Assembly: GCA_910583945.1 (NCBI GenBank)
Contig: CAJTYF010000001.1
Span: 16,274-80,273 of the forward strand
DNA: 64,000 nucleotides
From: an uncultured Bacilli bacterium
GTDB taxonomy: Bacteria; Bacillota_I; Bacilli_A; RF39; UBA660
Direction of reading: 5' to 3'
The notes beneath the pieces are model-generated. The model worked only from the letters and a program-made list of their open reading frames with translations. It made no database searches and was not told the origin of the DNA. The position numbers were made by a program, and so were the translations under genes. This document shows positions 34,412-37,205 of the stretch, piece by piece (the first letter of the stretch is position 1; every line of letters starts with the position of its first letter).

Positions 34412-35446
34412 ATGAGCAATTTAGAAGAGAAAAGTAATTTACTAATATATAAAAACAAAGATGGTAATATTATTGTAGATGCAATATATAAAGATGAAAC
34501 ATTATGGCTTACACAAAAAGGAATGGCAAAAGTTTTTGATGTGCAAGTTCCCGCTATTTCTAAACATTTAAAGAATATTTTTGATGAAGATGAATTAAAT
34601 AAAAATTCAGTTGTTTCCAAAATGGAAATAACTGCGGATGATGGTAAAAACTATAATACAGAAGTTTATAATTTGGATGCCATTATTGCTGTAGGTTATA
34701 GAGTCAATTCAAAAAAAGCAACTGAATTTAGAATTTGGGCAACAAAAGTATTAAAGGAATATATGACTAAAGGTTTTGCTTTAAATGATGAAAGATTCAT
34801 TAGTGGAAATAAGTATGATGGCAAATACTTTGATGAATTACTAGAAAGAATTAAAACAATTCGTGTTAGTGAAAGAATGGCATATCAAAAAATAACAGAC
34901 TTGTTTATTGCAACATCAACAGACTACAATCCTAAGTCAGAAGAAGCATATACATTTTTTAAAATAGTTCAAAATAAATTACATTATGCAATTAGTGGAC
35001 ATACCGCTGCAGAACTTATATATAGTAGAGCAGATTCAAATAAAGAGTATATGGGACTTACAAATTGGAAAAATTCTCCTGATGGTTTAATATATAAATA
35101 TGATGTAGCAATAGCTAAGAATTATTTAAATAAAGAAGAGTTAGAAAAATTAAATGATTTAACAAATATATTTTTAGTCTTTGCAGAAGATGAAGCAAAA
35201 GAAAGACATGTTATGACAATGCAAGATTGGATAAATGCAACAGATGATTTATTAAAATTTAGAAGAAAAAATGTTTTAAAAAATTCAGAAAATATAAGCC
35301 ATAAAGAAGCAGTAGAAAAAGCTGAAAGTGAATATGAAAAATATAGAGTAATTCAAGATCAGAAATACATTTCTTCCATGGATGAGTTTTATAATAAGTA
35401 TTTAGAGGAAAATAATCAGGTTGAAAAATCTGACAATGATAATTAA
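34412..35446 (+). CDS. RhuM-family protein
   Basis: Diagnostic RhuM region: ETLWLTQKGMAKVFDVQVPAISKHLKNIFDEDEL. RBS GAGGTG upstream. Confidence 0.7.
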   Translation: MSNLEEKSNLLIYKNKDGNIIVDAIYKDETLWLTQKGMAKVFDVQVPAISKHLKNIFDEDELNKNSVVSKMEITADDGKNYNTEVYNLDAIIAVGYRVNSKKATEFRIWATKVLKEYMTKGFALNDERFISGNKYDGKYFDELLERIKTIRVSERMAYQKITDLFIATSTDYNPKSEEAYTFFKIVQNKLHYAISGHTAAELIYSRADSNKEYMGLTNWKNSPDGLIYKYDVAIAKNYLNKEELEKLNDLTNIFLVFAEDEAKERHVMTMQDWINATDDLLKFRRKNVLKNSENISHKEAVEKAESEYEKYRVIQDQKYISSMDEFYNKYLEENNQVEKSDNDN

Positions 35447-35462
35447 ATTAGGAGGTGATTTA

Positions 35463-37205
35463 ATGAGTGAAAATGTAAATGAAGGCAATAGTGTAAATCC
35501 TTCAGTTATCATTAAAAAAATAAGATTTAATGATGACACAGAAATAGATTTAGGCAGTAATGATATAGTTGTTTTCGTTGGAGCAAATAATGTTGGCAAA
35601 AGTAGAGCATTAAAAGATATAAAAAACGATATTTTAGAAAATACTTCAAAAAAAGTAATAATCAATGATATAGAATATAAAGATGAAAATTTCGAAGAAG
35701 ATATTATGAAAAAATATTTTAAAAATAATTTTGAATTAGGATCTAATGGTTATGATATTGAAGTTGATGGAAGTCATACATATGGTTATAATGAACAAAA
35801 CTTTCAAAATACAAAATCAGGAGATAAATACTTTTATAAAGCTTTATTTAGCTTTCTATCCACAGAAAGTAGATTGAATATGACATCACCTATTTCCTAT
35901 TCCTATATTACTAACAAATTAAGTTTTAACATTATGAGAAAACTTGAAAGGGATAAAGGAGCCATAACAACATTAAATGGTATTTTATTTTCATGCTTTG
36001 GAAAGAAAATTGATGTTAGTGAAGGAATTTGGCAAAATGCTGTATCCAAGTTGTATAAATTTGGTACTAAAGATGAGATAGATAAATCCGTTGGTGCCGA
36101 TACAAGGGAAGCTAGATGTTTATTAGAATCTTTAGAAAATTTAAATGATCAAGGAGATGGAATAAGAAGTGCTGTTGCAATTCTGTCATCTTTAATTACG
36201 GCTACTCATTCGTTATACTTAATAGATGAACCAGAAACATTCCTTCATCCTCCACAAGCTAGAATATTAGGTAGGAATATTGTTGAGTTGTCCCAAAACA
36301 AACAGTGTTTTATTTCTACTCATAACATTGATTTGTTACGTGGAATGTTAGAAAAAAATTCTTCTAGAATCAAAATTATAAAAATAAATAGATCTGATAA
36401 TGAGAATGAATTTCATAGTTTAGATAATGAAAGTATTAAAACCATTTCTAATGATAAAAATTTAAAGTATTCTAACATACTTAATGGTTTATTTTATAAT
36501 ATAGTTGTTCTGTGTGAAAATGAAAGTGATTGTAAATTTTATTCTGCGGTATTAGAAAAATTAGATAGTGATGTATATAAAAACACTCTATTTTGTGCAG
36601 TTGGCGGGAAAGATCAATTTAAAATAATAATTCCGTTGTTGAATAAATTGAAAATAAATTTTTTAGTTATTGCGGATTTAGATTTAATAAATAATTGTGA
36701 TAAATTAAAAGATTTAATAAATTCAATAGAAGCTAATAAATATGATCAAATATCATCGACACACAGCGATTTCTTGAGATTATTTGAAAGTGGAACTGAC
36801 AGTCAGGTAAAAAAACAATCGGTAATAAAAGATGAAATACTTGGTTTAATTACTGATGCAACTTATATGTCGGATGAAACCGCTTTTAAAATACGACAAG
36901 TATTAAAGAATATTAGTCATTTAAAATTATTGAAAAATTGCGGTAAATCTTGTCTTCCGCCTGGAGAGTGCGTACAAAAATATAATCAAATTATAGATTT
37001 TTTGAATAAGAATAATATTTTTGTGGTAGAGTATGGAGAAATAGAACGTTTTATCACCGAAATTGATGGTCATGGAATTTCATGGGTTGAAGAAGTTTTC
37101 AAAAATTACCCTACATTTGATGAACCGGAATATAGTAATGCAAAAAAATTTATTAGGAAAGTATTTAAGATTGAATTGTTGGAAGAAGGTGAAATAAATG
37201 AATAA
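35463..37205 (+). CDS. OLD-family ATP-dependent endonuclease (ABC-type ATPase + TOPRIM; GajA-like)
   Basis: Walker A GANNVGKS, Walker B/D-loop LYLIDEPETFLHP, C-terminal TOPRIM (LCENESD ... IADLDL). 581 aa from the MSENV start with RBS AGGAGG. Confidence 0.75.
   Translation: MSENVNEGNSVNPSVIIKKIRFNDDTEIDLGSNDIVVFVGANNVGKSRALKDIKNDILENTSKKVIINDIEYKDENFEEDIMKKYFKNNFELGSNGYDIEVDGSHTYGYNEQNFQNTKSGDKYFYKALFSFLSTESRLNMTSPISYSYITNKLSFNIMRKLERDKGAITTLNGILFSCFGKKIDVSEGIWQNAVSKLYKFGTKDEIDKSVGADTREARCLLESLENLNDQGDGIRSAVAILSSLITATHSLYLIDEPETFLHPPQARILGRNIVELSQNKQCFISTHNIDLLRGMLEKNSSRIKIIKINRSDNENEFHSLDNESIKTISNDKNLKYSNILNGLFYNIVVLCENESDCKFYSAVLEKLDSDVYKNTLFCAVGGKDQFKIIIPLLNKLKINFLVIADLDLINNCDKLKDLINSIEANKYDQISSTHSDFLRLFESGTDSQVKKQSVIKDEILGLITDATYMSDETAFKIRQVLKNISHLKLLKNCGKSCLPPGECVQKYNQIIDFLNKNNIFVVEYGEIERFITEIDGHGISWVEEVFKNYPTFDEPEYSNAKKFIRKVFKIELLEEGEINE

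Follow-up and report, generated by a model that had tools for sequence, protein, structure and literature searches.

Introduction

The nucleases of the OLD family have been sorted, mainly by gene context, into four classes: Class 1 proteins are encoded by a single gene, Class 2 proteins (GajA) in tandem with a UvrD-like helicase, Class 3 proteins in retrons, and Class 4 proteins as a split AriA/AriB pair (PMC10568477, PMC7049728). Class 1, to which P2 Old, Thermus scotoductus OLD, Vibrio cholerae OLD, and Escherichia coli YbjD/OldB belong, is the least understood of these, and only a handful of its members have been tested. P2 Old destroys tRNA by cutting anticodon stems (PMC12445682), and Vibrio OLD nicks DNA (PMC12392090). 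Here we analyze a gene for an OLD-family protein (old) together with the RhuM-family gene (rhuM) directly upstream of it, both in a stretch of 64,000 nucleotides (nt), hereafter the window, from an uncultured Bacilli bacterium (RF39; UBA660; assembly GCA_910583945.1, contig CAJTYF010000001.1, positions 16,274–80,273, forward strand). The base composition of the window is low in GC (24–35%).

Two further described systems bear on this locus. For RhuM, the sole role proposal that we found is that of a toxin alongside restriction–modification (R-M) and PrrC-type nucleases (PMC3710099). Integrative and conjugative elements (ICEs) of the Tn5253 type use the 5' end of rbgA as their integration site, and a duplicated site restores the coding sequence (PMC8571831). 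A preliminary description of the window had proposed that RhuM and OLD form a two-gene defense module or, alternatively, that OLD is the remnant of a Gabija system that lost gajB when an ICE inserted. Based on the comparisons below we instead favor, with a probability of roughly three in four, the hypothesis that rhuM and old are two independent single-gene defense candidates rather than one system, and that they are adjacent by way of a hot spot at rbgA, where units of one or two genes are bounded by copies of a ~220-nt repeat.

Association of RhuM with OLD

Adjacency of the two genes outside the window, a point raised in the preliminary description, does recur (as in L001, L158, and L074, our labels for loci fetched from relatives and compared with the window) but is rare across the OLD family. 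Neighborhoods were counted in 80 diverse genome loci with an OLD homolog and in 63 IMG/VR viral loci, and RhuM adjoins OLD in one of the former and in none of the latter. The arrangements among relatives are diverse. In L001 an intact RhuM gene lies 465 nt upstream of OLD, in L158 only a RhuM fragment of 67 amino acids (aa) is found upstream, in L074 a distant OLD homolog begins 46 nt downstream of RhuM, and in L007, from a mouse-gut relative, a second RhuM gene follows 225 nt downstream of OLD. In L007–L010 the upstream rhuM has decayed to a pseudogene (frameshifts, stop codons, and 118 nt deleted), next to an OLD gene that is intact (95% identity) and has a dN/dS of 0.17.

The RhuM proteins found beside OLDs of 83–95% identity are only 47–57% identical to one another, and thus RhuM and OLD have not been inherited together. 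Between the window and L001, DNA identity is 85% over the OLD region (35437–37212) and drops to 68% over part of rhuM. RhuM homologs with 85–94% identity to the window protein are followed by a GNAT acetyltransferase gene (2-nt gap), a gene for a 143-aa protein (15-nt gap), a gene for a 317-aa protein, or nothing. RhuM is a promiscuous neighbor, independent of OLD. The frequent occurrence of RhuM beside defense nucleases is explained here by a shared mobile-element hot spot, and adjacency alone does not make a system.

The alternative is a genuine two-gene module expressed as one operon, in which RhuM would act as a sensor, a regulator, or a second effector and OLD as the nuclease. The 16-nt gap without a terminator fits such a module, as do the pair being intact in seven near-identical loci, the close upstream RhuM gene of L074, the RhuM gene or remnant upstream of OLD in L001 and L158, and the presence of RhuM-like genes beside another ABC-ATPase nuclease, PrrC, in R-M loci (PMC3710099). 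Nevertheless, we consider the module unlikely, given that 79 of the 80 genome loci and every one of the 63 viral loci lack an adjoining RhuM, that a RhuM pseudogene or fragment stands beside an OLD gene that is itself intact and under purifying selection, that an att-like repeat separates the two genes in L001, that the RhuM partners have not diverged along with OLD, and that the closest RhuM homologs are paired with unrelated genes. As for expression, no terminator-like site was found in 34100–37680, and rhuM and old are therefore likely cotranscribed in the window, as the preliminary description had proposed from their tight spacing; cotranscription does not imply a dedicated system. A promoter scan of this AT-rich DNA was uninformative (25 sites vs. 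28.9 expected).

Some points weigh against two independent genes at a hot spot. The 16-nt gap (or the 11-nt overlap, if an alternative start of OLD is used) together with the lack of a terminator makes a single transcript of rhuM and old very likely, and given a shared transcript the two products may interact functionally. Adjacency is seen in four arrangements that involve different RhuM lineages (the window, L001, the downstream copy of L007, and L074), which is above naive chance; each of the four is located at the end of a mobile element or in the rbgA hot spot. The antiphage role and the cleavage target of this OLD subfamily are carried over from characterized Class 1 OLDs. Finally, no recombinase for the repeat-bounded units was identified in the window, and the far end of the ICE lies beyond position 64000.

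RhuM itself is a separate, very widespread defense-island gene (PADLOC single-gene candidate PDC-S05; E 1.7e-132 for the window protein). The window protein matches Pfam Virulence_RhuM (PF13310) over profile positions 1–250 of 252 (E 2.2e-97; 325.7 bits against a cut-off of 33.7), and it is a full-length, high-scoring member of the family in the typical context of a defense island or mobile-element end, with no feature that sets it apart. Values of dN/dS of 0.06–0.10 against homologs of 84–94% identity point to purifying selection. Neither sequence nor profile searches of the PDB turned up a solved homolog, comparison with NCBIfam and PHROGs gave no informative match, and the AlphaFold2 (AF2) model, built from an alignment of 20 homologs of 83–92% identity, reached a predicted local distance difference test score (pLDDT) of only 39.8. 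In L007, the downstream RhuM gene (10002–11017) has a predicted product of 298 aa; the final ~46 residues continue in another frame, and this copy, too, may be frameshifted.

Class and Catalytic Motifs of the OLD Protein

The OLD protein is assigned to its family by Pfam (AAA_21, E 1.9e-12; AAA_15, E 4e-8; OLD-like_TOPRIM PF20469, E 4.2e-8, above its cut-off) and by PADLOC, where its best match is "Old" (E 9.5e-21) with only aa 248–425 aligned. Standard defense models match only part of it. Pfam and PADLOC bear out the preliminary assignments of both genes, OLD-type ATPase plus TOPRIM and RhuM family. The four motifs that had been named, GANNVGKS, DEPETFLHP, ENESD, and DLD, are all present, and their catalytic residues are invariant in our family alignment of 50 homologs, which are 26–83% identical to the window protein (table 1). 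H287 is invariant as well. E352 and D356 are presumably the counterparts of the metal ligands E377 and D381 of Thermus OLD (ligands from PMC7049728). Both genes lie where they had been placed, although OLD has 580 aa rather than ~581 and follows rhuM by 16 nt rather than 17. An alternative in-frame ATG at 35436, chosen by some gene callers, would give 589 aa and an 11-nt overlap with rhuM; we favor the start at 35463 because the 83%-identical homologs have 580 aa and because of its strong ribosome-binding site (RBS), AGGAGG. The gene is under purifying selection (dN/dS 0.14–0.19).

Sequence, modeled fold, and gene context together place the 580-aa protein in Class 1 as a divergent, stand-alone member of the OLD nuclease family. 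A single-sequence phmmer search of the PDB places GajA at the top (E 1.8e-6), slightly above Thermus OLD. With the 50-homolog profile, Thermus OLD moves to the top (6p74, E 2.6e-11), and no GajA match remains at E ≤ 1e-3. The AF2 model (pLDDT 89.3; predicted template modeling score 0.85) gives the same order in Foldseek against the PDB: 6p74 comes first (E 7.7e-11), followed by Retron-Eco8 OLD and GajA (E 2.5e-9), and all of the top 20 matches are OLD proteins. The TM-scores against solved OLDs are low (0.35–0.40), probably owing to differing domain orientations. In hhalign the family profile aligns with P2 Old over 281 columns that include the C-terminal GxxE motif (probability 98.4%, E 1e-14, score 115.6), and with BcGajA over 184 columns that end after the DxD motif (probability 95.7%, E 1e-8, score 71.8). 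Class 2 OLDs are marked by a specific Toprim insert and by a C-terminal helical domain that carries the catalytic lysine. In the AF2 model a long helical region, in which K491 is invariant, lies between DxD and GEIE; in the alignments it pairs with P2 Old and not with GajA. The preliminary description had left the choice between GajA and Class 1 open, and it is the Class 1 half that profile and fold favor, with GajA ranked behind.

The resemblance to characterized Class 1 OLDs therefore comprises the absence of a helicase or reverse-transcriptase partner, the conserved catalytic E...D and DxD residues, the first place of 6p74 in both profile and fold searches, the alignment of the C-terminal region with P2 Old, and the occurrence of the family in prophages as well as chromosomes. 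The length also lies within the Class 1 range, for which a cut-off of ~500–600 aa has been used (PMC12392090); homologs mostly have 555–590 aa. There are differences, too. P2 Old is very distant, such that tblastn of 50,697 phage records does not reach it. Thermus OLD has ~47 residues between the DxD and GEIE strands where the window protein has ~120, mostly helical. According to a review, Class 1 genes stand in isolation (PMC10568477), whereas the window gene lies among other defense genes. With GajA the protein shares its domain order, a similar length, and an alignable region from Walker B to Toprim, but the window OLD has no gajB and its profile similarity to GajA is weaker than to P2 Old.

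The subfamily is large and spread over many phyla, with 3,167 clusters (50% identity) at E ≤ 1e-3 and 857 at E ≤ 1e-30, and its members occur on 63 IMG/VR viral contigs. Among the matches listed, the closest named genome is that of Massilimicrobiota timonensis (52% identity). Public records label subfamily members only "AAA family ATPase" or "ATP-dependent nuclease," and tblastn with OLD gave one distant match in annotated phages and nine distant matches in plasmids, none with useful context.

By analogy with P2 Old, the ABC-type ATPase of the window protein would use ATP, through binding or hydrolysis, to license a two-metal Toprim nuclease, and a nuclease triggered by infection would then cut nucleic acid and bring about abortive infection. 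We infer the trigger and the target from analogy; what the data show for the window gene itself is its domain content, the conserved catalytic residues, the stand-alone context, purifying selection, and the defense and mobile-element setting beside two GmrSD-like genes. The window OLD would be a reasonable candidate with which to examine the phage-defense role of stand-alone OLDs from Gram-positive gut bacteria, and tRNA versus DNA cutting in particular.

Partner Genes and Alternative Functions of OLD

No helicase gene directly follows OLD in the window, in keeping with the preliminary description, and a BcGajB query found no adjoining helicase in any of ~180 fetched loci or beside any of ~150 OLD homologs. 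The 80 genome loci contain 61 same-strand neighbors, among which the only recurring families are type I R-M subunits, resolvases, TIR proteins, and similar genes. In Streptococcus anginosus, OLD homologs stand alone between ybaB and pepX. PARIS (Class 4, AriA + AriB) was considered and rejected, as the ATPase and Toprim domains lie on one 580-aa open reading frame (ORF) and not on separate polypeptides. A retron association was rejected because no Rfam match was found in 33800–38000. A pairing of OLD with the GTPase gene downstream of it in relatives was also rejected, since the GTPase is the housekeeping protein YlqF/RbgA (TIGR03596, E 3.8e-100).

Could OLD nonetheless be the gajA of a degenerate Gabija system that lost gajB at the ICE insertion? 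The first rank of GajA in the single-sequence phmmer search and the GajA-like size of ~580 aa are compatible with this idea, which we regard as having next to no chance of being correct. In the near-identical ICE-free loci L174 and L176 (98.8% identity), where the preliminary description would have looked for gajB, OLD is followed not by a helicase but by genes for a YhcG/DUF1016 nuclease, a DUF6870 protein, and a HAD hydrolase and then by an intact rbgA. No GajB-like ORF adjoins OLD in any relative, profile-level comparison favors Class 1 proteins, and rbgA (ylqF) comes directly after OLD in both the 83%-identical lineage (L001–L006) and the ~50%-identical lineage (L158). This last arrangement raises another possibility, namely that OLD has a host function coupled to rbgA, for example in ribosome or tRNA quality control, rather than a role in defense. 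In L001 and L158 the stop codon of OLD runs into the start of rbgA, and an archaeal OLD ATPase with a nondefense, cell-cycle function, Cran1, has been described (PMC12796447). We judge a host function very improbable. The distribution is patchy and OLD has been transferred horizontally (83% OLD identity vs. 44% for flanking housekeeping genes), family members are found on prophage and viral contigs and in the neighborhood of R-M, TIR, and recombinase genes, the repeat that supplies the rbgA-like start after OLD also follows unrelated cassette genes, and other genes lie between OLD and rbgA in some strains.

A Proposed Hot Spot at rbgA

In the window, as in L001, rplS (21221–21619) and lepB (21710–22204) lie upstream. 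L19 and LepB are only 44% identical to their L001 counterparts, and OLD is 83% identical (85% at the nucleotide level); thus, the OLD segment has moved horizontally, as a discrete unit. Nucleotide homology of that segment to L001 (7975–9750) extends from 26 nt upstream of the OLD start to 7 nt downstream of its stop.

An att-like repeat of ~220 nt, which we call the rbgA-prime element, overlaps the last codons of OLD. It consists of the rbgA RBS and first 13 codons, which overlap the OLD stop (ATGAATAA), followed by a conserved noncoding arm of ~160 nt (..TGATTACGATTTAT..AAACCCTTATAAATAAAGG..AGATCTTGCACATTTT..AGGTGATTACG). The break in rbgA falls at 37237/37238, where TGGT is followed by TGATTACGA; in relatives the intact YlqF genes match NCBIfam TIGR03596. 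Five copies of the repeat occur in L164, three each in L173 and L183, and two in L175; copies are also present in L171 and in L167 (flanking RhuM), and the copy that separates RhuM and OLD in L001 lies at 7507–7636. In relatives the copies always separate units of one or two genes. A pattern scan of metagenomes found 6 loci with a strict pattern and confirmed the arrays.

Strains differ by whole cassettes at the repeats, and where strains are near-identical, the differences are confined to the right side of the repeat. The near-identical set comprises six loci (L173–L178), all of which carry the block of uracil-DNA glycosylase (UDG), GmrSD, GmrSD, RhuM, and OLD genes; the alignment to the window covers three of them, L173–L175, at 98.7–98.8% identity over window positions 29435–37422. 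In L175, a 3-kb segment (YhcG...DUF5680) lies between two repeat copies, the second of which is followed by the ICE. Taking this segment out of L175 yields the arrangement of the window, as window 29436–37422 matches L175 1–7989 and window 37201–40162 matches L175 10799–13763. Therefore, strain differences arise by recombination at the repeats. The latter match, which covers ICE sequence, is 98.5% identical and includes the same ParA and ParB genes; L174 has an intact rbgA at this position.

We propose that the 5' end of rbgA would serve as an integration target for conjugative and mobilizable elements, and that rhuM and old would adjoin because both are carried in a cargo array built up just upstream of rbgA. 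Each unit of the array would end with a mimic of the rbgA RBS and 13 codons followed by the conserved arm, and recombination between repeats would add, remove, and shuffle units among strains; in the window such recombination would have put the ICE directly after OLD. Tandem accretion and decay of rbgA-targeting elements, leaving att-flanked cargo, is the simplest reading of this array. The preliminary description had placed an ICE junction after OLD. A conjugative element does lie downstream, but the junction is a truncated rbgA 5' end within the ~220-nt repeat. The left junction with its 13 authentic rbgA codons is present in the window, L174 provides the ICE-free allele, and a restored rbgA would lie, together with the right end of the ICE, past the end of the window.

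These features resemble ICEs of the Tn5253/Tn5252 type and tandem accretion of the kind seen in cis-mobilizable elements (CIMEs). The target would likewise be the start of rbgA, the duplicated segment would restore or mimic its 5' end, and in the window the ICE adjoins the broken rbgA start. However, ~40 nt of coding sequence are duplicated here compared with 20 nt in Tn5253, and the window-type repeat is ~220 nt long, occurs up to five times per locus, and bounds units of one or two genes. The repeat-delimited array is a more unusual by-product of the analysis and the most unusual feature that we have seen at this locus. A bolder proposal, which we hold tentatively and at odds well below even, is that the repeat is the recombination site of an integron-like platform at rbgA. 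An ICE or an integrative and mobilizable element (IME) would supply a recombinase that captures, excises, and reshuffles cassettes of one or two genes (RhuM, OLD, GNATs, YhcG nuclease, deoxyribosyltransferase-like genes, and others), each translationally coupled to the next rbgA-like start, and RhuM-OLD would be one fused cassette.

A shorter motif, GATTACGA, occurs twice within the repeat, at 37238–37263 and 37395–37418 in the window and at ~9800 and ~9960 in L007. In each genome an identical 13-mer comes after both copies (TTGCAACCCCCTA in the window, TTAAGAAC(AC) in L007, AAGAACAT in L164), and therefore the two sites change together between genomes. The paired sites may be recombinase half-sites.

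Large serine recombinases occur beside RhuM-containing units, as in the RhuM-OLD-recombinase arrangement of L074 (4564–9171), and in L164 (537–4257) a DUF6870 gene and three resolvase-family genes precede the repeat array. The serine recombinases of L074 and L164 are candidate enzymes for the cassette rearrangements; that of the ICE analyzed here would be encoded beyond the window.

Table 1. Coordinates of features discussed in the text (window numbering)
Feature	Position	Strand	Basis or remarks
Two GmrSD-like (type IV restriction-like) genes, 613 aa and 740 aa	30194..34257	+	Pfam GmrSD_N/GmrSD_C
rhuM, intact RhuM-family gene, 344 aa	34412..35446	+	ATG at 34412, TAA ends at 35446; ORF and RBS, Pfam PF13310, PADLOC PDC-S05
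Spacer between rhuM and OLD, 16 nt, with the AGGAGG Shine-Dalgarno of the OLD gene	35447..35462	+	Sequence; no terminator
Predicted Class 1-type OLD-family nuclease gene, 580 aa: ABC ATPase, Toprim, helical C-terminal region	35463..37205	+	ATG at 35463, stop ends at 37205; Pfam, PADLOC, AF2, Foldseek, hhalign
Walker A, GANNVGKS, aa 40–47	35580..35603	+	G40, N42, N43, G45, K46 invariant (50-sequence alignment)
Walker B region, LIDEPETFLHP, aa 253–263	36219..36251	+	D255, E256, P257, F260, L261, H262 invariant (50-sequence alignment)
Toprim acidic motif, ENESD, aa 352–356	36516..36530	+	E352, D356 invariant (50-sequence alignment)
Toprim DxD motif, DLD, aa 405–407	36675..36683	+	D405, D407 invariant (50-sequence alignment)
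C-terminal GEIE motif	37035..37046	+	G525, E528 invariant; P2 Old counterpart GDIE
~220-nt att-like repeat (rbgA-prime element)	37175..37398	+	nhmmer E 1.3e-53; overlaps last 10 OLD codons; homology to ~37422
Truncated rbgA/ylqF start, 13 authentic codons MNNENRQNTTINW, then out-of-context sequence	37198..37281	+	Comparison with intact YlqF of L001, L158, L156
Conjugative element (ICE) to window end: 55-aa ORF, ParA, ParB, adhesin, sortase, SNF2 giant, primase-like protein, relaxase, type IV coupling protein (T4CP)	~37423..64000	+	Pfam

Conjugative Element and Neighboring Genes

Rightward of ~37423 the gene content (table 1) is that of a bona fide conjugative element. Its SNF2 protein (2598 aa, 44419–52215) has SNF2/helicase domains only in the C-terminal third; the N-terminal ~1,750 residues gave no Pfam match at E ≤ 1e-4.

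Directly upstream of rhuM, the two GmrSD-like genes (30194–32035 and 32035–34257) overlap by 1 nt. The 613-aa protein has N- and C-terminal GmrSD domains and the 740-aa protein the N-terminal domain only, with no PADLOC match for the latter. Probably they form a type IV restriction pair, and they are coinherited with rhuM-old in L007–L010 and L173–L178.

Three genes of the UDG superfamily lie in the island between lepB and rhuM (22986–25755 and 29538–30119), together with a DUF5680 gene and a gene in which FGase and Q_salvage are fused; at the same position, relatives have Q_salvage and DUF3841 genes. This unusual cluster hints at a function in modified-base (queuosine/deazaguanine-type) DNA or nucleotides. 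In L154/L155 (1970–7955), an OLD homolog (P0281) from another lineage lies beside a second AAA_21/AAA_15 protein (509 aa), a 299-aa partner, and a Peptidase_U49 (Lit-like) gene, and this stretch looks like a separate defense island.

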